A stretch of DNA of 28,936 bases from a virus. Lineage: Duplodnaviria > Caudoviricetes. Each line of letters opens with the position of its first letter. Positions within the stretch are counted from its first letter, which is position 1. The stretch is taken from the IMG/VR virus record IMGVR_UViG_3300037991_000411, positions 1 through 28,936 of that record. One strand, given 5' to 3'. The position numbers and the translations under genes are program-made. The notes beneath the pieces were generated by a model. That model had not been told where the DNA came from, did no database searches, and was given only the letters and a program-made list of their open reading frames with translations. Positions 3,452 through 21,210 of the stretch are shown in pieces.

Positions 3452-3476
3452 AAAGGGGTTTTATGCCCCTTTTTTT
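3452..3476 (+). terminator. Intrinsic terminator
   Basis: AAAGGGGT-tttat-GCCCCTTTTTTT hairpin with U-tract. Confidence 0.8.
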
Positions 3477-3486
3477 GTACATTAAA

Positions 3487-3513
3487 AAACAATATCCTAA
3501 CTTTTATATTTAT
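3487..3513 (+). promoter_or_regulatory. Putative phage late promoter, copy 3
   Basis: AAACAA 3487-3492, TTTATATTTAT 3503-3513, ATG at 3525; immediately after a terminator. Confidence 0.8.
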
Positions 3514-3524
3514 AATAAAATACT

Positions 3525-4255: not shown

Positions 4256-6415
4256 ATGAATTTAGATTTAGTAAAATTAAGCCACTATAATATCCCACAC
4301 TTAGTAGAAGATACTAAGAATGATTGGGTAAATTTCGGACAAGACAACCTTTATCCCAATTATCTACTAGACCTATTCTTAGGAAGTGCTATTAATGGTG
4401 CTTTAATTAAGTCAATAGGTGCTATGATATATGGCGAAGGATTAGCTGCTACTAATGTTGATGAAACCACAGACACTAAAGAGTCTTATTTACGACTTAC
4501 AGAGCTGTTACATAATTCTGATGATGATGTATTAAAAGACCTAGCAATGGATTTAAAGCTATTTGGAGGTTGTTATGTTAATGTTATTTGGTCTAGGGAT
4601 AGAAGTAAGATAGCTAAAATGTTACATATCCCTGCTCAATATATCCGCAGTGGTAAAATGATAGATGGAGAAATACGACACTACTACTACTCTGCTGATT
4701 GGTCTAAAACAAGAAAAGCAGAATACAAGCCAAGAGCATATCCTGCATTTAATACAGAAGATAGAACACAAGCTAGTCAGATTCTAATGATTAGAGATAA
4801 AAACCCTGCTTTATTCTATGGCTTTGCTCCTGATTATGTAGCTGCTACTGATTGGATTCAAATGGAATTAGAAATAGCTCAGTTTCACTTATCTAATATA
4901 ACGTCAGGAATGACTCCTAGTATGCACGTTGGCTTTTCTAACGGTATACCTACTGAAGAAGAAAGAAGAACTATAGAAAGACAATTAAACGCTAAATTTG
5001 CAGGTAGTGGTAATGCAGGTAAAATACTTATTACTTTTAATGACGGTAAAGAAACTGCACCTATTATAGAACCTATCCAAATGAATGATGCACAGAATGC
5101 TTGGGTAGAAATGCAGAAAAGTGCAGTTGCAAATATACTCGCGGGACATCGTGTGGTGAGTCCAATCCTTTTTGGAATCAGAACTGATACGGGTGGTGGT
5201 TTAGGCAATAATGCTGATGAATTGCGAGATGCTTACAGTTTATTTAACAATACTGTGGTCGTTCCCTTCCAAAACACGCTTTTAAAGGGTTTAGAGAAGA
5301 TATTTAAGGTAAATGACATAAACCTTGATTTGTACTTTAAATCGCTTAAACCTGCTGATTTTATTGATTTAGAAGTTACTAAGACACAATCAGAGGAGGA
5401 CCAAGAAAAAGAAGGTGTTACAAAAGAAGATATAAATACAGAAGAATTAAAGCACGAATTTAAGGACTTACAAGATATAGACACTAAACCTACTAAGGGA
5501 ATGGTAGAAGAAGCTATTAGGGGTTTAGAATGGCGTAGAGAATATGATAGAGGGGGAACACAAGTAGCAGTAGCTAGAGCCACAAACATAAAAAACGGTG
5601 ACAATCTTAGTTTAGACACTATCTCTCGTATGAACAGTTTTTTTGCAAGGCACGAAGTAGATAAACAAGCTGAAGGTTTTAATCCTGGAGAAGAAGGATA
5701 TCCAAGTGCAGGTAGAATAGCTTGGGCATTATGGGGAGGTGATGCAGGACAAAGTTGGGCAAAAAAAAAAGTTAAAGAAATAGAGGGCGTTAGAGCTGAC
5801 TTATCAGATGACGAATTTGATGATGTATTTAACGCTTTAAAAGGAGAAAAGATAGATTTAGATGAATGGGAAGTAGTAGATGAGCAAGATTATGTAGATG
5901 ACTACGAGGATTGGGCAGATACATTTATAATGCCTAAAGAAAAAAAAGAGTTTGCAGATGAAATATCAGCAAAACCTGACGGCTTTAGTTATTTAGATAA
6001 ATCATATTACAAAATACGATTTAAGTATTTTAAAAAGAGTAAAAGAAAAACTAAAACAGGAACATCAAGATTGTTTTGTAGAAATATGATGAGATTATCA
6101 GGAGAAGGAACTGTATATAGATTAGAAGATATTGACGCAGCTAGTAGAGCAGGTGTTAATAAACAACTAGGACATAAAGGTAGAAAGTATGACCTTTTCA
6201 AGTTCAAAGGAGGAATTTGGTGTACCCACGCCTGGAAGATAGTTTTATATCGCCTTAAAGCAGGTAGTGAGCTAAAAGAAGGACAAGGATTAGATGACTA
6301 TAAAAAAACATCATCAATACCTAAAACTTACGAGCCAAAACCAAGAGGAATAAAGGACGCAGTTCAAGCAGCAAACGCAAGTAATAATTGGTGGAAATAT
6401 CCAGGTAGAAAATAA
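4256..6415 (+). CDS. Portal protein with long multi-domain C-terminal extension
   Basis: N-terminal ~365 aa carry portal motifs (FGQDNLYPNYL, GSGNAGK, ILAGHRVVSPILFGI, LGNNADE); ~350 extra residues follow. Confidence 0.85.
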   Translation: MNLDLVKLSHYNIPHLVEDTKNDWVNFGQDNLYPNYLLDLFLGSAINGALIKSIGAMIYGEGLAATNVDETTDTKESYLRLTELLHNSDDDVLKDLAMDLKLFGGCYVNVIWSRDRSKIAKMLHIPAQYIRSGKMIDGEIRHYYYSADWSKTRKAEYKPRAYPAFNTEDRTQASQILMIRDKNPALFYGFAPDYVAATDWIQMELEIAQFHLSNITSGMTPSMHVGFSNGIPTEEERRTIERQLNAKFAGSGNAGKILITFNDGKETAPIIEPIQMNDAQNAWVEMQKSAVANILAGHRVVSPILFGIRTDTGGGLGNNADELRDAYSLFNNTVVVPFQNTLLKGLEKIFKVNDINLDLYFKSLKPADFIDLEVTKTQSEEDQEKEGVTKEDINTEELKHEFKDLQDIDTKPTKGMVEEAIRGLEWRREYDRGGTQVAVARATNIKNGDNLSLDTISRMNSFFARHEVDKQAEGFNPGEEGYPSAGRIAWALWGGDAGQSWAKKKVKEIEGVRADLSDDEFDDVFNALKGEKIDLDEWEVVDEQDYVDDYEDWADTFIMPKEKKEFADEISAKPDGFSYLDKSYYKIRFKYFKKSKRKTKTGTSRLFCRNMMRLSGEGTVYRLEDIDAASRAGVNKQLGHKGRKYDLFKFKGGIWCTHAWKIVLYRLKAGSELKEGQGLDDYKKTSSIPKTYEPKPRGIKDAVQAANASNNWWKYPGRK

Positions 6416-7329: not shown

Positions 7330-7453
7330 GAGAAGAACATATCCAAGTAGCTTGGAAAATTTTAAAAAGTTAAAAAATTATATTAAAAAGTTAAACAATG
7401 GCAGGACAAAGATTAACCGACAAATCAGGACTAGCACAGCAACCAGCAAGTGA
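7319..7453 (+). CDS. Small basic hypothetical protein, 44 aa (not in ORF track)
   Basis: MTVKRRTYPSSLENFKKLKNYIKKLNNGRTKINRQIRTSTATSK; fills the gap and overlaps both neighbours. Confidence 0.45.
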   Translation: MTVKRRTYPSSLENFKKLKNYIKKLNNGRTKINRQIRTSTATSK

Positions 7454-7928
7454 TGATTTATTAATGGTGGTAGATGCTTCTGATACTACAGGGTCGGCAT
7501 CAGGTACAAGTAAAAAAATAGAAGCTAAAAATGTATTTACTGTAAAATCAGTTTCTTTATCTTCTGCACAAATACAAGCATTACATGCTACTGCTATAGA
7601 GTTAATTGCTGCTCCTGGTAGTGGTTATTCTATTATGATTCACAGCATTTTGGTTGATGGCATCTATGGTACTACTACAGAAACAAGCGGAAGAGACCTT
7701 TTATTTGCTTATGGCACACCTTCTTTTTTCCCCCCACCCGGCAACTATTCTTATTTTCTTGAGAATTTTATGCTTAATGCAGCAACTAGTAGAACTTTGT
7801 ATGCTATACCTTTACCTAAAGGTACGAGTGTTGCAGATAATCAACCTTGGAAAGTAAAAGCAAACCTTCCAATAACTGCTGATTTTACTGCTGTTGTTCA
7901 TATAGCTCATACAATTATAAAACTATGA
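7398..7928 (+). CDS. Short virion fibre/spike-like protein
   Basis: N-terminal RLTDK...PASDDLLMVVD...TSKKI resembles fibre anchor segments; small beta-rich C-terminal domain. Confidence 0.5.
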   Translation: MAGQRLTDKSGLAQQPASDDLLMVVDASDTTGSASGTSKKIEAKNVFTVKSVSLSSAQIQALHATAIELIAAPGSGYSIMIHSILVDGIYGTTTETSGRDLLFAYGTPSFFPPPGNYSYFLENFMLNAATSRTLYAIPLPKGTSVADNQPWKVKANLPITADFTAVVHIAHTIIKL

Positions 7929-8941
7929 TAAAATATCTATTCTTATTATTACCTTTTTTAACCTTTAGTCAAGGTGGCTTTTTTAAGTATTCTACATTTT
8001 ATACTTCTATGAGCATGAATACTTCTATGATTGAAGCAGAAGATTATCAAGCAATCGCTAAAGGATACGAAGATATAACACAAGTAAATCCTTATGACTA
8101 TAACCTAACTATAGGTATTCGTAAGATTGCTAGATTTGATTATGAGTATAAAGTAAAAACCTGGTATTATGGAACTGAAAAAGCTGTTGCAGATAATGTT
8201 ACTATTGGTAATTCTAATGGTTGGGAGTATTTGCTTAATTATTCATTTATACGTAATCGTTCCGATAAGTTTACTGAGCAGAACTTTTGGCTTAGATATC
8301 TTGGAAACAGATGCGTAACTAAAATACAATATACTGACAATCAACGAGTAGATTTAAGGTACAATTCAATAGATTCTAGATATAGAATAAAAAAAGGTAA
8401 TTTTGACTTTACTATTGGTGCTAATTTTAGAATGCACGACCCCTATGGAATAAATCCTATAGAAGATTTCTGGATTCCTGGACAAACTTCTTTCCAACAA
8501 TTAGCTTCTGACTTTGGATATTCTAGCCAATTTGTTAATGGCAGATGGCACTGGTATAAAGAGGGCGAAGTGATAGCGACGTCAAATGATGAGTTCTACA
8601 AGCATTATTTTGGTCAAGCTATAGCAGAGTTCAACGAAAGGGAGTTAGAAGCTCTAGGGTCACAAAATGAGCTTTCTGCGGTGTTTGGGGTGGCTTACTA
8701 TAGCTACAATCCTAAGTTTTGGCTACATATATGGGCAAATGTAATGCCTTTTCATTATGGATTAGATGATTATTCCTTTGAGTATGGAGATGGCTTAAAT
8801 AAGCTAGATTGGGACTCAGGAATGATATTAGGTTATAGAGTCACAAAACATTTAGGAGTATTTATAGAAGGGACTCATCAAAGATATTGGGATAAGCCAT
8901 TATACGAGTCAAAATTTGGGTTTAATTATTTAGTATTTTAA
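7925..8941 (+). CDS. Putative outer-membrane beta-barrel protein
   Basis: Signal peptide MIKYLFLLLPFLTFS/Q; amphipathic aromatic-rich strands (YDYNLTIGIRK, FDFTIGANFR, LGVFIEGTH); C-terminal KFGFNYLVF ending in Phe. Confidence 0.7.
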   Translation: MIKYLFLLLPFLTFSQGGFFKYSTFYTSMSMNTSMIEAEDYQAIAKGYEDITQVNPYDYNLTIGIRKIARFDYEYKVKTWYYGTEKAVADNVTIGNSNGWEYLLNYSFIRNRSDKFTEQNFWLRYLGNRCVTKIQYTDNQRVDLRYNSIDSRYRIKKGNFDFTIGANFRMHDPYGINPIEDFWIPGQTSFQQLASDFGYSSQFVNGRWHWYKEGEVIATSNDEFYKHYFGQAIAEFNERELEALGSQNELSAVFGVAYYSYNPKFWLHIWANVMPFHYGLDDYSFEYGDGLNKLDWDSGMILGYRVTKHLGVFIEGTHQRYWDKPLYESKFGFNYLVF

Positions 8942-8943
8942 GT

Positions 8944-9624
8944 ATGAAAAAATTATTATTATTATTTTTATTATTATCAGGTTATGCGTTTAGTCAATCA
9001 AATTGTGAATTATGTGCCGAGCAAGGCGGTTTTTATTGTGGAGATGATGAAAGCAACTGGACTTCGTACAGTCCACTGGGTTGTGTCCCTAATGGTCTTA
9101 ATGGTGTATTTTACCTTAATGACGGTTGGAGTGATTGTGTTGATGGTGCAGATGAAGATAACGCAGTACCTACGACATTAGCGGATTGTAATGCGTATGG
9201 AGAAACTTGTGATACTGTATTTGTAGAGATTCCTATAATACAATATGAAATAATTTTTGACACAATAATACAGACAGAATATCTAACTCAAATCTTAATA
9301 GATACGCTAGAGATAGAAACATTAGTGCCTGAATATATATATATAACTGATACGGTATATGCAGAAGTGCTAGACACTATGTATATAGACGTAATAGAAT
9401 ATGTTGATACTATTGTGTATGATACAGTAGTTGAAATAGAATACGTTGAGTTTATAATAACTGAGTATTTGGACTGCCTTACAGGATTGCCATGCAATAC
9501 AGCTATTATGGAACTTGACAACAGTAAATTAAATAATAACCTATATAATCTTATGGGTAATGAAATTAGAAAGCCAAATGGGATTTATATAGAAAATGGT
9601 GAAATCAAATTTAAAATAGATTAA
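8944..9624 (+). CDS. Secreted protein: LDLa-like domain, DT[VILM] stalk, T9SS-like C-terminal domain
   Basis: Signal peptide ...YAFS/Q; FYC...GCVP...NDGWSDCVDGADE; seven DT[V/I/L/M]; tail YNLMGNEIRKPNGIYIENGEIKFK. Confidence 0.7.
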   Translation: MKKLLLLFLLLSGYAFSQSNCELCAEQGGFYCGDDESNWTSYSPLGCVPNGLNGVFYLNDGWSDCVDGADEDNAVPTTLADCNAYGETCDTVFVEIPIIQYEIIFDTIIQTEYLTQILIDTLEIETLVPEYIYITDTVYAEVLDTMYIDVIEYVDTIVYDTVVEIEYVEFIITEYLDCLTGLPCNTAIMELDNSKLNNNLYNLMGNEIRKPNGIYIENGEIKFKID

Positions 9625-9626
9625 AT

Positions 9627-9809
9627 ATGGAAATTGTAAAAAAAATCACAGCAAGTAAAAAATTTTGGTATGCTTTTGGAGCATTAGCTTTATTGCTTTT
9701 TTCTGATAGCATAGGAATAAATGACCAAGAAGTTAATAACATAATCATATTAGCTTTAGGTCTTATAGTAGCTCAAGGATTAGCAGACCGTAAAGATTGT
9801 AAGAGATGA
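9627..9809 (+). CDS. Small two-TM membrane protein, holin-like
   Basis: 60 aa; SKKFW motif, two hydrophobic segments, AQGLAD, basic tail. Confidence 0.55.
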   Translation: MEIVKKITASKKFWYAFGALALLLFSDSIGINDQEVNNIIILALGLIVAQGLADRKDCKR

Positions 9810-10084
9810 AAATAAGTGAAAAGTCGGAATTAACTTTAGATTTAAAAACTATTGGCATAGTAATAGCTATGGCAGTATCAGTATCAGGTAGCTATTTTAC
9901 TCTTAAAGCAGATATTGAAGAAAACAAAAAAGCTCTTGAAAAGGGCAACTGGGTAAATGCTAAAGAATACGAACTGAAAGACGAATTAGTGCGTACTACT
10001 ATAATGGGCAATAGTAAAAAGTTAGACGCTATAGAGGATAAATTAAACACTATAGACAGCCGACTTTATAACTTAAAAAAGTAA
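9806..10084 (+). CDS. Single-TM coiled-coil membrane protein
   Basis: Hydrophobic TIGIVIAMAVSVSGSYFTL followed by heptad-rich LDAIEDKLNTIDSRL. Confidence 0.6.
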   Translation: MKISEKSELTLDLKTIGIVIAMAVSVSGSYFTLKADIEENKKALEKGNWVNAKEYELKDELVRTTIMGNSKKLDAIEDKLNTIDSRLYNLKK

Positions 10085-10086
10085 CT

Positions 10087-10428
10087 ATGAATTTAGGTTA
10101 TATATTACAAATCTTAATAGCATTATTCTTTTTTGCTGTAGGTTTGTGTGTGTCTCAAGTATCTGTGATTCATTTTAATAGTGAATGGAACTCAGAAAAC
10201 AGCTTTAATATAGACGAGCTAAATGACTGTGAAAAATCAGACGTGGTTATATGCGACAGTCCTGAACTAAAAGACAAACACAAAATCCTTTCTGTTCCTA
10301 CTATTATTATATTTGACAACGGTAATGAGATTACTAGATTTGAAGCTAATATAATGATGCAATTAGAGGCAACAAGAAAGGAAATACAAAAAGAAATAGA
10401 GAAGATTCACTTAGCTAAATTTGAATGA
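10087..10428 (+). CDS. Exported thioredoxin-fold protein lacking CxxC
   Basis: Hydrophobic signal ending VS/Q; HFNSEWNSEN at the FxAxWCxxC position; ILSVPTIIIFDNGNEITRF matches the thioredoxin cis-Pro region. Confidence 0.68.
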   Translation: MNLGYILQILIALFFFAVGLCVSQVSVIHFNSEWNSENSFNIDELNDCEKSDVVICDSPELKDKHKILSVPTIIIFDNGNEITRFEANIMMQLEATRKEIQKEIEKIHLAKFE

Positions 10429-10922
10429 AATTATCAAAAAACTTTACACTACAAGAGCTAATAAAATCTAACACAGCATTAAGATTAGGAATAGATAACA
10501 CACCCTCTAAAGAGGGAATAATGAAACTGACTATATTAGCCACTTCAGTCCTCCAGTTACTACGTGACCGTATTGGAGCTTTGAGGATTACAAGTGGCTA
10601 TAGGTCACCACAATTAAATACTGCTATTGGTGGTAGCAATAAATCACAGCATACTAAATGCGAAGCAGTAGACATTCAATACGTCAAAAGAGGACGTATG
10701 GATAACTTAATGATATACCAAGCATTAATAGATTTAGATATTGACTTTGACCAGTGTATATTGGAATTTGGGGATAGCACAGCAACAAGCGACCCTACTA
10801 GTCCTGCTTGGATTCATTTAAGCTATAAAATAACTGACAATAGAAGGCAGGTATTAGTAGCTTATAAAGATGATAATAACAAAACAAAATACAGACCTTT
10901 AATTAAATACAATACAATATGA
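10425..10922 (+). CDS. Endolysin, peptidase M15A family (Zn-dependent)
   Basis: LSKNFTL, TSGYRS, SQH...AVD and WIHLS motifs. Confidence 0.88.
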   Translation: MKLSKNFTLQELIKSNTALRLGIDNTPSKEGIMKLTILATSVLQLLRDRIGALRITSGYRSPQLNTAIGGSNKSQHTKCEAVDIQYVKRGRMDNLMIYQALIDLDIDFDQCILEFGDSTATSDPTSPAWIHLSYKITDNRRQVLVAYKDDNNKTKYRPLIKYNTI

Positions 10923-11326
10923 GCATTTTAAATAAATTATTAGGTGGAGATTTTTTAAATTCTGTTAATAAAATTGTTGATAATGTTGTGACAAGTGATG
11001 AAGAACGTAAACAATTAGATATTAACTTGAAGCAGCTGATTAAAACTCACAAGAAAGAAATGTTTGAGTTAGAAGTAGAAGATAGAAAATCAGCTAGAAG
11101 TATGTATAGTACCGATAGTGGTGTTCAGAAAATACTAGCTACTATTTTTACTTTAGCATATTTTGCTTTAAGTTTTGTTATGTTTAGATATTTTGTTTTA
11201 GGGGATTTAAATTTAGGAGAATTTGAAATATCTTTCATATCTACCATATTCGGTGCTATGAGTGCCAAAGTAAATACTATCGTAGATTTTTTCTTCGGTG
11301 GTTCTAGTAATAACAAAAAGAAATAG
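10919..11326 (+). CDS. Putative holin (3TM GTA-holin-like)
   Basis: DNVVTSDEER and DRKSAR motifs, hydrophobic segments, FFFGGS; coupled to the endolysin. Confidence 0.65.
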   Translation: MSILNKLLGGDFLNSVNKIVDNVVTSDEERKQLDINLKQLIKTHKKEMFELEVEDRKSARSMYSTDSGVQKILATIFTLAYFALSFVMFRYFVLGDLNLGEFEISFISTIFGAMSAKVNTIVDFFFGGSSNNKKK

Positions 11327-15016: not shown

Positions 15017-15664
15017 ATGAAAGAATATAATCACAAAAATCTTAAATTAATTAATGCTGATTGCATGGATATAATGAAAGAATATAAAGATAATTATTTT
15101 GACTTAGCAATAGTTGACCCGCCTTATGGAATAAAAATTCAACAATCTGGGGGAACTCCAAGCCACTTGGGTTTTAAAAATTATAAAAAAAAAAATTGGG
15201 ATAATGAAATTCCAAGTAAAGAGTACTTTACAGAATTATTTAGAGTATCAAAAAATCAAATTATTTGGGGTGCAAATTATTTTGTCAAGTATTTAAATAA
15301 AGGAACAATGGGCTGGGTGTTTTGGTTTAAAGGACAAAATGGATTATCAATGTCGGATGGCGAAATTGCATACACAAGTTTTCAAAAAGCTACAAGACAA
15401 GTAAAAATTAATAGATGCGATATAAAATTAGATGGTGCAATTCATCCCACACAAAAACCTATTAGATTGTATAATTTTTTATTAGATAATTATTCTAATA
15501 AAAATGATAAAATTTTAGATACTCATTTAGGTAGTGGCTCAAGTGCTATAGCTTCTTTTTATTATGCGTGTAAAGAGTTTGTAGGTATTGAGATAGACAC
15601 AGAATACTACAATGACAGTATTAAAAGGATAAAACAAAAAACAGCACAAATGAAATTATTATGA
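15017..15664 (+). CDS. DNA amino-methyltransferase (N6A/N4C, beta class)
   Basis: DPPY precedes HPTQKP and LDTHLGSGS. Confidence 0.9.
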   Translation: MKEYNHKNLKLINADCMDIMKEYKDNYFDLAIVDPPYGIKIQQSGGTPSHLGFKNYKKKNWDNEIPSKEYFTELFRVSKNQIIWGANYFVKYLNKGTMGWVFWFKGQNGLSMSDGEIAYTSFQKATRQVKINRCDIKLDGAIHPTQKPIRLYNFLLDNYSNKNDKILDTHLGSGSSAIASFYYACKEFVGIEIDTEYYNDSIKRIKQKTAQMKLL

Positions 15665-17524: not shown

Positions 17525-17819
17525 GGTATATATGGACTTTTTTGATTATGGAGAACAGGACTTCGTAATGTGTGAAATGTGTCAGCAAGATAGAGCTGTT
17601 GATATTCATCATTTAGAAAGAAGAGCTATGGGTGGCTCAAAGAATAAAGATTACATAGAGAATCTAATGGGACTGTGTAGAGATTGCCACAACAAAGCAG
17701 AAGCAGATAGAATGTTTAATATGTTCTGCAAAATAAAACATTTAGAAAATGTGTGTCATCAAATATATGCTATGATAGAATACAATAAAACAATGAAACG
17801 ATATGAAAATAGAAAGTAA
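17508..17819 (+). CDS. HNH endonuclease
   Basis: CEMC, DIHH and NLMGLCRDCH motifs; TTG start; near the terminase genes. Confidence 0.82.
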   Translation: MKKHTKVYMDFFDYGEQDFVMCEMCQQDRAVDIHHLERRAMGGSKNKDYIENLMGLCRDCHNKAEADRMFNMFCKIKHLENVCHQIYAMIEYNKTMKRYENRK

Positions 17820-18933
17820 ATTACTAAAAAACCTAAACCCTGCATCATACAATCCCAGACAGATTAGCAGTAAACAATATAAGGACTTAAAAGAATCAAT
17901 TAAAAAGTTTGGATTAGTAGACCCTATAATAGTAAACAAAGATAATACTGTAATAGGTGGACATCAACGATTGAAAGTTTGTAAGGAACTTAAATATGTA
18001 GAGGTTGAGTGTGTAATGCTAGACTTATCAAAAGAAGAAGAAAGAGAATTAAACATTAGATTGAATAAAAACACAGGGGACTTTGATATGGATATATTGG
18101 CTAACGAGTTTGATATAGAAGAGCTTACGGATTGGGGATTTAAGCATATTGACCTTGATATTAATATAGATAAAATCACAGAGGGCAATACAGAGGACGA
18201 CCATATACCAGAAGTAAAAGAAAGTAGAGTTAAATTAGGTGATGTTTGGCAATTAGGAAAACACAGATTGATGTGTGGTGATAATATGGACTTAATGAAA
18301 CAATATGAAGATAATTATTTTGACCTTGCAATAATAGACCCGCCTTATGGTATAAATTTTGATGGCGAAACAACAGTAAAAGGAAAAGGTGGAAAGGCAA
18401 AAACCTTTTCAAATAAACAAAACCATTTAAAAAAAGATTGGGATAATGAAACACCAAAAAAAGAATACTTTGATGAACTTATAAGAATATCTAAAAATCA
18501 GATAATTTGGGGCGGCAATTACTTTACAGATAAACTACCTGTTAGCAGGGGTTGGATATATTGGGACAAAAAAATAACTAATAAAAACAATAAGAACTTT
18601 TCTGATGGGGAGTTAGCATACACAAGTTTTGATAAAAGATTAATTAAGTTTACTTATGATTGGATTGGGTTTGGATATTTAAACAATCCTGATAAAGAAA
18701 AAAAAATACACCCAACACAAAAACCTGTTCAAATTTACAAATGGTTATTAGAAGAATATGCAGAAAAAGATTTTAAAATTATAGATACTCATTTAGGTAG
18801 TGGTTCAAGCTTAATTGCAAGTATTAAACATAAAATAAAAGAGTTTGTTGGAATGGAATTAGACAATGATTATTGCGACAAAACATTAGAAAGATGGGAA
18901 CAGTTTACAGGACAAAAGGCAAAAAAGGTATAA
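17803..18933 (+). CDS. ParB/Srx N-terminal domain fused to DNA amino-methyltransferase
   Basis: YNPR, FGLVDPIIV, GGHQR; GDVWQLGKHRLMCGD linker; DPPY, HPTQKP, DTHLGSGS. Confidence 0.88.
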   Translation: MKIESKLLKNLNPASYNPRQISSKQYKDLKESIKKFGLVDPIIVNKDNTVIGGHQRLKVCKELKYVEVECVMLDLSKEEERELNIRLNKNTGDFDMDILANEFDIEELTDWGFKHIDLDINIDKITEGNTEDDHIPEVKESRVKLGDVWQLGKHRLMCGDNMDLMKQYEDNYFDLAIIDPPYGINFDGETTVKGKGGKAKTFSNKQNHLKKDWDNETPKKEYFDELIRISKNQIIWGGNYFTDKLPVSRGWIYWDKKITNKNNKNFSDGELAYTSFDKRLIKFTYDWIGFGYLNNPDKEKKIHPTQKPVQIYKWLLEEYAEKDFKIIDTHLGSGSSLIASIKHKIKEFVGMELDNDYCDKTLERWEQFTGQKAKKV

Positions 18934-20464: not shown

Positions 20465-21046
20465 ATGAAAGAGGTTAAATTAACAATACCTGATAATTGG
20501 TCTGACATAACAATAGACACTTATCAAAAGTATGTGAAAATACAAGAGGGTAAAGGAACTGAAAAAAATAAAGTTATTAAGAGCTTGGCTCTATTATGTA
20601 ACACCACACCCTTTGTAGTTAAGAAAATGGCTTACAGTGATTTATTAGAGATTATGTCTATAATAAAAAAGATGATAGACACAGAGCCAAAAGAAGAAGA
20701 TTTTAAAAAGGTATTTAAATTTAACAATACAGAATATGGCTTTGTGCCTAACCTTAGTAAGTTAAGCACAGGAGAATATATTGATTTAGAAGCATACTGT
20801 AAAAATCCTATAGAGAATCTTCATATTATTATGAGTATACTATATAGGGTAATTACTTTTAAACGTGGAGAACGCTATGCTATAGAAAGTTATGACCCTG
20901 ACCAATTCAAGGAAGAACTGTTTAAAGAATGTCCTATGAACATAGCATTAAGTTCGCTAGGTTTTTTTTTGACTTTAGGAAGCGTATTGGCGAGGACTTC
21001 GCAGCGTTATTTGAAAGCACAGGAAAAGAGAGTGCAAAAGGCGTAA
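20465..21046 (+). CDS. Putative tail assembly chaperone (G-like)
   Basis: First gene of the tail operon; has a T9 slippery run near its 3' end and an overlapping -1 ORF. Confidence 0.6.
   Translation: MKEVKLTIPDNWSDITIDTYQKYVKIQEGKGTEKNKVIKSLALLCNTTPFVVKKMAYSDLLEIMSIIKKMIDTEPKEEDFKKVFKFNNTEYGFVPNLSKLSTGEYIDLEAYCKNPIENLHIIMSILYRVITFKRGERYAIESYDPDQFKEELFKECPMNIALSSLGFFLTLGSVLARTSQRYLKAQEKRVQKA
20960..20971 (+). other. Putative -1 ribosomal frameshift site GGT TTT TTT TTG
   Basis: Nine T (20962-20970) give T TTT TTT in the X XXY YYZ register; the -1 frame stays open to 21210. Confidence 0.68.
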
Positions 21047-21210
21047 GTATGCAAAGTAAATGGGGATGGTATAATGTCCTTTACAGCTTATCTAATTCAA
21101 TACTAGATATAGAGAAGATTACACAGCTACCTATATTAGAGGTGCTGACTTATTTGGCTTTTAGTCAAGATTATAATAATAAACAAAGAAGTAACTATGA
21201 TAACTTTTAG
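20968..21210 (+). CDS. Frameshift extension of tail chaperone (T-like), or 53 aa ORF from ATG 21049
   Basis: -1 frame reads FDFRKRIGEDFAALFE...KWGWYNVLYSL. Confidence 0.6.
   Translation, partial: FDFRKRIGEDFAALFESTGKESAKGVSMQSKWGWYNVLYSLSNSILDIEKITQLPILEVLTYLAFSQDYNNKQRSNYDNF

Follow-up and report, generated by a model that had tools for sequence, protein, structure and literature searches.

The window analysed here, the whole of the IMG/VR record IMGVR_UViG_3300037991_000411 (28,936 nucleotides, nt), is an entire circular phage genome, whose 78-nt terminal repeat leaves 28,858 unique bases. It encodes a terminase, a portal, a head protease, a tape measure protein, methylases, an M15 endolysin and two holin-like genes. 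An earlier reading of the DNA alone (the sequence-only reading) had proposed an envelope-directed cassette of five genes at positions 7925 to 10428, and indeed, five plus-strand open reading frames (ORFs), here named A to E, follow one another there with overlaps of 4 nt or gaps of 2 nt (Table 1). They are flanked by a virion-like gene (7398-7928; PHROG 19691, E value of 5e-4) and the gene of the M15 endolysin (10425-10922). Three of the products have signal-peptide-like N-termini, as judged by hydropathy only, which end in LTFS/Q, YAFS/Q and LCVS/Q, as the earlier reading had noted. A small residue and then Q come before the mature domain in all 97 anchored homologues of A, in 62 of 63 homologues of B and in 74 of 96 anchored homologues of E. 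A Gln exposed by signal peptide cleavage is described as a rule of Bacteroidota (PMC5837995).

The genes are linked far beyond chance, but the cassette is not a fixed set of five. In three overlapping sets of 80 loci each, found with A, E or B, the A-found loci contained full A in 77, B in 74, D in 71 and E in 68 cases, and the three loci with full A that lacked B stop just after A. The E-found loci contained D in 79, A in 73 and B in only 15 cases; of the seven without A, six break off at D or B or shortly before, and the seventh (L156) has only 520 nt upstream. Among the B-found loci, A was present in 79, D in 76 and E in 73. From these counts, A, D and E are the conserved core, and B is one of three alternative cargos that is absent in whole clades. 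Gene C is optional: it was found in 11 of the 80 A-found loci, an unrelated substitute with two transmembrane (TM) helices in 36 and both together in none. The two-TM product noticed before is a holin-like protein (PHROG 9987; E value of 0.002 in the window and 2e-5 for a homologue) and not a constant part of the module. For the comparisons below, dereplication at 92% left 99 of the 193 loci in which A, D and E are all complete.

A is predicted to be an outer-membrane beta-barrel, with a signal peptide, 12 strands and a hydrophobic or aromatic C-terminus (54 of 99 end in F, the others in L, I or Y). The AlphaFold2 (AF2) model shows a 12-stranded barrel with a predicted local distance difference test score (pLDDT) of 76 and a predicted template modelling score of 0.69. 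Its best fold match was OmpG (Z of 11.7, root mean square deviation [rmsd] of 5.3, 197 residues aligned), and the TamA barrel, EstA, KdgM and NanC were matched as well (Z of 10 to 11.7 for OmpG, TamA, KdgM and NanC); the barrel seen in the first gene by the sequence-only reading is supported by both model and matches. The loop of residues 68 to 98, with 73 to 82% identity within a clade, is a candidate plug or docking site. No match to A was found in Pfam, NCBIfam or PHROG, nor to its scanned relatives in Pfam or NCBIfam. In total, 321 cluster representatives matched A at an E value of ≤0.001, the nearest Atlas clusters were viral wherever taxa are recorded, and all relatives were on contigs of phage size. 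Matches to the barrel motif amount to an estimated 1,500 stored IMG/VR stretches, from phages of 28 to 95 kb. No relatives of A were found in GTDB genomes, and GenBank phages had no relatives of A, B, D or E. With the phage porins in BFVD, A shares a phage-encoded barrel inserted into the outer membrane of the host, but the fold matches were weak (E value of 4e-4 or worse), apart from one relative with 32% identity. Lom of phage lambda and Lc are further phage-encoded outer-membrane proteins; to our knowledge, no such protein comes with a dedicated pair of periplasmic and inner-membrane partners. A second small barrel-like exported protein lies near the module in locus L266 (12764-13183; DUF5777, E value of 0.008, below the cutoff).

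D has a short conserved N-terminus (E5, K14, T15), one TM helix and a helical C-terminal part, which comprises about 60 residues after the TM helix in the window and 51 to 83 among homologues, most of which have a Pro-rich linker. By hydropathy and the Atlas model, this predicted topology, an N-terminal TM helix followed by a helical periplasmic part, is like that of i-spanins as described in PMC6139136. No Cys was present in D in any of the 99 loci. E keeps the thioredoxin fold and the cis-Pro position, so that the exported thioredoxin fold noted earlier stands, but the CxxC motif was found in none of 99 sequences and is replaced by [WF]NxxN; judged by its active site, E is not a redox thioredoxin. 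E has no invariant Cys, and the Cys at position -3 in the signal peptide of some E proteins is not conserved. D and E overlap or lie ≤20 nt apart in 97 of 99 loci, and their distances are correlated (rho of 0.81, 63 loci). A complex prediction for A, D and E with E as the partner scored 0.00, which is not evidence either way. In L298 (10111-10785), the D homologue has a long N-terminal extension, which we take to resemble tandem MshEN motifs although Pfam gave no hit; the host of this phage may differ, since its barrel lacks the Q+1 end. A second D-like gene, which is divergent, lies next to the gene of the M15 endolysin in L234 (11838-12164) as well as in L237, L238, L243 and L249.

B had been read as a protein with a low-density lipoprotein receptor class A (LDL-A) module and features of the type IX secretion system (T9SS). 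The first part was borne out weakly: PF00057 matched 21 of 44 members at an E value of ≤0.1 (best, 4e-4) and left the window's own B unmatched. B aligned to a repeat of LRP1 (E value of 0.005), the acidic cage D60, D64, D70 and E71 is invariant in 44 of 44 members, and, of the six-cysteine pattern of such modules, the Cys before DG is replaced by Asn. The head therefore looks like an LDL-A calcium cage and, by analogy, would bind calcium. The AF2 model of B is poor overall (pLDDT of 52), too poor for a fold search. The stalk varies from about 10 to 168 residues across the family; the stalk lengths of the window (9211-9471) and the homologues are mostly even (54 of 62), which suggests a two-residue register as in beta structure. 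The Bacteroidota motif for O-glycosylation is given as D-S/T-A/L/V/I/M/T (PMC12871550), and the stalk in the window contains seven such motifs versus 0.62 in shuffled sequences. The stalks of the family contain 378 D[ST][AILVMT] motifs versus 41 ± 6 in shuffles, although the 63 stalks are related and do not amount to 63 independent tests, and a repeat origin could inflate the count. In 378 of 386 cases, D[ST] is followed by an allowed residue. B is thus likely to be glycosylated by the host.

The T9SS part of the claim holds strongly for the large substitute cargos described below and, for B, by inference from its tail of 40 residues. None of 44 B tails matched TIGR04183 or PF18962 (Por_Secre_tail). 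A pattern for short C-terminal domains (CTDs), with motifs B, D and E, short spacing and a three-strand tail, was found in 50 of 63 B tails and in none of 3,957 other ORF tails; this demonstrates specificity and not export, because the pattern was written from the alignment of B itself. The 13 tails that it missed are near-misses by eye. Like the short T9SS CTDs of Prevotella intermedia described in PMC11969387, the tail combines motif B (Y..G) and GxY-I, with a short spacer between them, and ends in a basic residue, but the host lineages differ; the libraries used contain no hidden Markov model for such short CTDs. Export by the T9SS via a short-type tail is therefore likely. A search, albeit a weak one, revealed no longer proteins with the tail of B. 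Taken together, B is likely to be an accessory surface protein that binds calcium and goes together with one allele of the barrel. Barrel genes next to genes of cargo with sorting tails are also known for the T9SS carriers (PorV for type A, PorP/SprF-like for type B; PMC10994853). Unlike these carriers, A has no family match, its best folds are generic porins and autotransporter barrels (type 9 translocon chain 6h3i_F ranked 19th, with a Z of 8.8 and an rmsd of 6.1 over 187 aligned residues), and A barrels also exist without cargo.

In a barrel tree calculated with a quick method, three clades agreed with the state of the cargo for all 99 loci: 63 loci have B, 22 have a large T9SS cargo and 14 have no cargo nearby. 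This sampling was not neutral, in that the E query supplied the second and the third clade. The large cargos (665 to 895 amino acids, aa) are canonical type A T9SS proteins; TIGR04183 matched eight of eight at an E value of ≤0.001, six of them above the cutoff. In the clade without cargo, none of five near-complete records matched TIGR04183 or B (positive control, three of three), and the core persists. There, the outer insert of A is 12 residues longer, and an EF-hand-like motif, DxNxNG, is present in the insert in 11 of 14 loci versus 0 of 85 cargo-bearing ones. A further search for more distant barrels gave 36 rows without B: 14 with a third cargo that has a short tail, 8 with an acidic or EF-like loop and without known cargo, 8 with neither, 3 truncated and 3 re-fetched genomes. 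In the group to which the window belongs, phages whose D is 77 to 85% identical to that of the window have either a barrel with 70% identity together with B or one with 32% identity without B. Moreover, the D-E data reject the monophyly of the cargo-free phages as grouped by the barrel tree (approximately unbiased [AU] test, P of about 1e-11). Barrel and cargo are thus exchanged as a block on a D-E background. This should not be overread, since A-B distances are weakly correlated (rho of 0.22, below the value of about 0.5 for B-D and B-E), which is weak mirror-tree support, and since neighbouring genes are swapped together by linkage.

Other exported or small proteins were seen at some loci. 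Beside the module and on the strand opposite to it, L125 (10279-12971, minus strand) and L128 (10282-10599, minus strand) encode a protein whose tail is of T9SS type B (CHU_C, TIGR04131), and the L125 region also has a pappalysin-like Peptidase_M43 protein. In L061, A and B are separated by an inserted GH16 glycoside hydrolase (9059-9766). Small Lys/Arg-rich proteins (DUF6321, PHROG 10346, PHROG 7595) lie in or beside the module, e.g., in L076 (13407-13766), L105 (10333-10647) and many larger relatives; one cluster of them spans 44 of 55 loci.

A phage module that spans inner membrane, periplasm, outer membrane and surface, as proposed by the sequence-only reading, is supported by fold, targeting signals and synteny, without the constancy of five genes. 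It partly resembles spanins, canonical T9SS cargo (B), PorV/PorP barrels and redox thioredoxins and belongs to none of them. No description of it was found in the literature as judged by titles and the beginnings of abstracts, subscription journals and supplements lying outside the search. The module is real, widespread and unlike described systems, and it is carried by many uncultured ocean phages, probably of Bacteroidota.

What could the core do? We tentatively propose, with a probability of roughly 0.38, that A, D and E form an envelope bridge that acts at the stage of lysis and replaces spanins. The proposal starts from the folds, the motifs for targeting and the co-occurrence of the genes, from their place between the gene of a holin-like protein and that of the endolysin, and from the lack of a lipoprotein gene. 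A scan of all frames of the window found no lipobox ORF, and two module genomes of 63 to 68 kb gave none either, whereas the control recovered Rz1 and Bor of lambda; in three cargo-free genomes, there were two matches, one of them an E signal peptide and the other doubtful. Since no lipoprotein is encoded, the window has no o-spanin. Endolysin-type genes of three lysin families were found ≤3 kb from D-E in 50 of 63 B-type and in 14 of 14 cargo-free loci; DUF5675 is described as a C82-like peptidase (bioRxiv 2026.04.11.717860). Phages without spanins account for 91 of 677 genomes in PMC6139136, where an outer-membrane protein in the role of an o-spanin is raised as an untested possibility. In the proposed mechanism, Sec and Bam would deliver the exported and barrel proteins to the host envelope, D, anchored in the inner membrane, would bind E, and E would dock onto the periplasmic loop of A. 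Once the endolysin has removed the wall, the bridge might draw the membranes together or open the barrel and in this way carry out the outer-membrane step of lysis instead of spanins. With two-component spanins such as Rz/Rz1 of lambda, as described in PMC6139136, the module would share the position in a lysis cassette (here), a helical inner-membrane subunit anchored at its N-terminus, a partner gene that abuts or overlaps, and a subunit in the outer membrane. It differs in that it lacks a lipoprotein, an integral barrel would serve as the outer anchor, a third, soluble subunit with a thioredoxin fold is added, D has no Cys and the endolysin gene is not always near.

Several observations weigh against a bridge for lysis. 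In the clade with large cargo, an endolysin-type gene lies ≤3 kb away in only 1 of 22 loci and none was seen in 20 of 22; DUF5675 is >10 kb off in two large-cargo genomes, by record coordinates, and was not seen in three. In one lineage, about 7 kb separate A-B from an inverted D-E, and a lysin was seen beside neither of them. Nonlabens phage P12024S has an M15 endolysin and the same holin family, but no lipobox and no match to A, B, D or E; a phage can thus do without both module and lipoprotein. The lack of Cys in D contrasts with 507 of 528 two-component spanins that have at least one Cys in the pair, although Cys-less i-spanins are common (both PMC6139136). In sister phages, A falls to about 32% identity while D stays at 77 to 85%, and A-D and A-E distances are weakly correlated (rho of 0.29 to 0.34). 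Finally, calcium-binding loops and a glycosylated outer cargo are unnecessary for membrane fusion.

This outer face is better accounted for by surface display, which we nevertheless regard as somewhat less likely overall. Here, the barrel would present a calcium-binding head, which may be a loop of its own or a partner that is secreted, and would be held from inside by E and D, with no role in lysis; such a platform could mask receptors, act as a decoy for rival phages or make the infected cell adhere to particles or to new hosts. One slot is shared by three cargo families that are unrelated but all have tails of the T9SS type, barrel clade and cargo state agree throughout, and the EF-hand-like tip is confined to cargo-free barrels, with eight further cargo-free loci adding to it. 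The dense glycosylation motifs in a stalk of such variable length, the extra T9SS cargo in some relatives and the loss of the linkage to lysis genes in the large-cargo clade point in the same direction. Against it stand the place of the module in the late operon among lysis genes in most loci, eight loci without a flagged loop or known cargo (one truncated, one with a loop that was not parsed), and the low A-B correlation. Moreover, adjacent genes are swapped together by linkage alone, and there are only about six independent barrel clades.

Gene position and outer face would both be covered if the module were an outside-in sensor that times lysis, an explanation that we consider unlikely. The calcium-dependent head would bind an external ligand and the signal would pass via the inner loop of A to E and on to D or the holin, comparable to lysis inhibition in T4, where RI acts on T. 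D, with its short N-terminus, single TM helix and periplasmic part, and E, whose signal peptide is cleavable, have the same topology as holin T and antiholin RI of T4, which are likewise a single-pass inner-membrane protein and a secreted periplasmic partner among lysis functions (PMC11413866). In addition, the N-terminus of D is conserved, the outer parts are exchanged while D-E is kept, and LDL-A modules are textbook ligand-binding units. However, neither D nor E matched T or RI in sequence searches of PHROG and PDB, and the periplasmic part of D looks like plain helices and not like a sensing fold; the system of T4 is not known to include an outer-membrane barrel or surface cargo. In its fullest form, the module would be a trans-envelope receptor with an exchangeable calcium-binding head on the barrel, this head being either the barrel's loop or a cargo that the host exports by its T9SS and glycosylates; connected via the dead thioredoxin and the inner-membrane anchor to the lysis machinery, it would let abundant ocean phages sense the outside and decide when the cell bursts. 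This is quite unlikely in our view.

Two separate modules in one operon, D-E related to lysis and A with or without cargo for the surface, are improbable: the inversion that separates D-E from A-B in one lineage and the rejected monophyly would fit, but D-E accompany A in every barrel clade examined and usually abut A when cargo is absent. That the proteins are ordinary virion components, as the location after head and neck genes in the late operon might indicate, is highly improbable in view of Q+1 signal peptides, the fold of a membrane barrel, TM helices and motifs for glycosylation by the host.

The host of the phage is likely a member of the Bacteroidota, as judged from the Q+1 signal peptides, the glycosylation motifs, A-rich starts and the portal, whose best match in a cultured phage is that of P12024S (34.5%); this has to be read along with the lack of relatives of A in GTDB and of A, B, D and E in GenBank phages. 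Gene 12 of P12024S (L384, 8556-9194) encodes a single-pass-looking protein and lies just before M15, the slot occupied by D-E here; its assignment as a T4-holin-like protein found no support, since it matched PHROGs of unknown function only. Cassette DNA was found in marine metagenomes (13 runs with at least half of its words), and none of the runs listed with cassette DNA was an RNA data set. A promoter-like motif, TTTATATTTAT[TA]A, is located at 26, 1068, 3503 and 20449, each time just 5' of a start codon. The third copy is preceded by a hairpin (3452-3472), and only two short terminator-like sequences lie on the plus strand between it and the cassette (6971 and 8733); cotranscription of the cassette from this copy is plausible. 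The motif is informative only where it stands before a start codon with no mismatch or with one; copies with two mismatches were not above chance (22 versus 16). Sigma-70 promoter matches in the window were below chance (55 versus 67 expected).

Table 1. Features of the module and its surroundings in the window
Feature	Position	Strand	Basis or remark
Late promoter-like motif, third copy, nearest upstream of the cassette	3503..3515	+	Motif match, putative
A, core, 338 aa	7925..8941	+	Signal peptide 1-15, Q+1, predicted 12-stranded barrel ending in Phe
A, long conserved loop, residues 68-98	8126..8218	+	Periplasmic by strand counting; low pLDDT
A, large insert, residues 172-246	8438..8662	+	Extracellular by strand counting; short form without EF-hand-like tip
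B, cargo, 226 aa	8944..9624	+	Signal peptide 1-17, Cys-rich LDL-A-like head, variable stalk, short T9SS-type tail
B, stalk with seven D-T-[VILM] O-glycosylation motifs	9211..9471	+	Motif count
C, optional, 60 aa, small holin-like membrane protein	9627..9809	+	PHROG 9987
D, core, 92 aa, TM helix at about 16-31	9806..10084	+	Hydropathy, homologue alignment
E, core, 113 aa, exported thioredoxin fold	10087..10428	+	[WF]NxxN in the position of WCxxC
Peptidase M15 endolysin, overlaps E	10425..10922	+	Family match
Second holin-like gene	10919..11326	+	PHROG 3427, E value of 1e-4

Elsewhere in the genome, the N6/N4 DNA methylase genes at 15017-15664 and 17803-18933 share three stretches of DNA that are 77 to 79% identical, and the second methylase is fused to ParB. 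The portal gene (4256-6415) has an extra C-terminal region (about 400-520) with 55 to 67% identity to genes of Roseobacter and Synechococcus phages that carry the annotation capsid or portal; a form of 602 aa occurs in some sister phages. Two overlapping ORFs directly after the terminase gene (20465-21210) resemble a pair of tail assembly chaperones, with a possible frameshift.

For the question of how phages without spanins cross the outer membrane, the module offers three small genes. Apart from lysis, phage genes that are shaped for the T9SS and the O-glycosylation of the host and are swapped as alleles between sister phages would amount to an engineering of the surface of the infected cell, of which we found no description.

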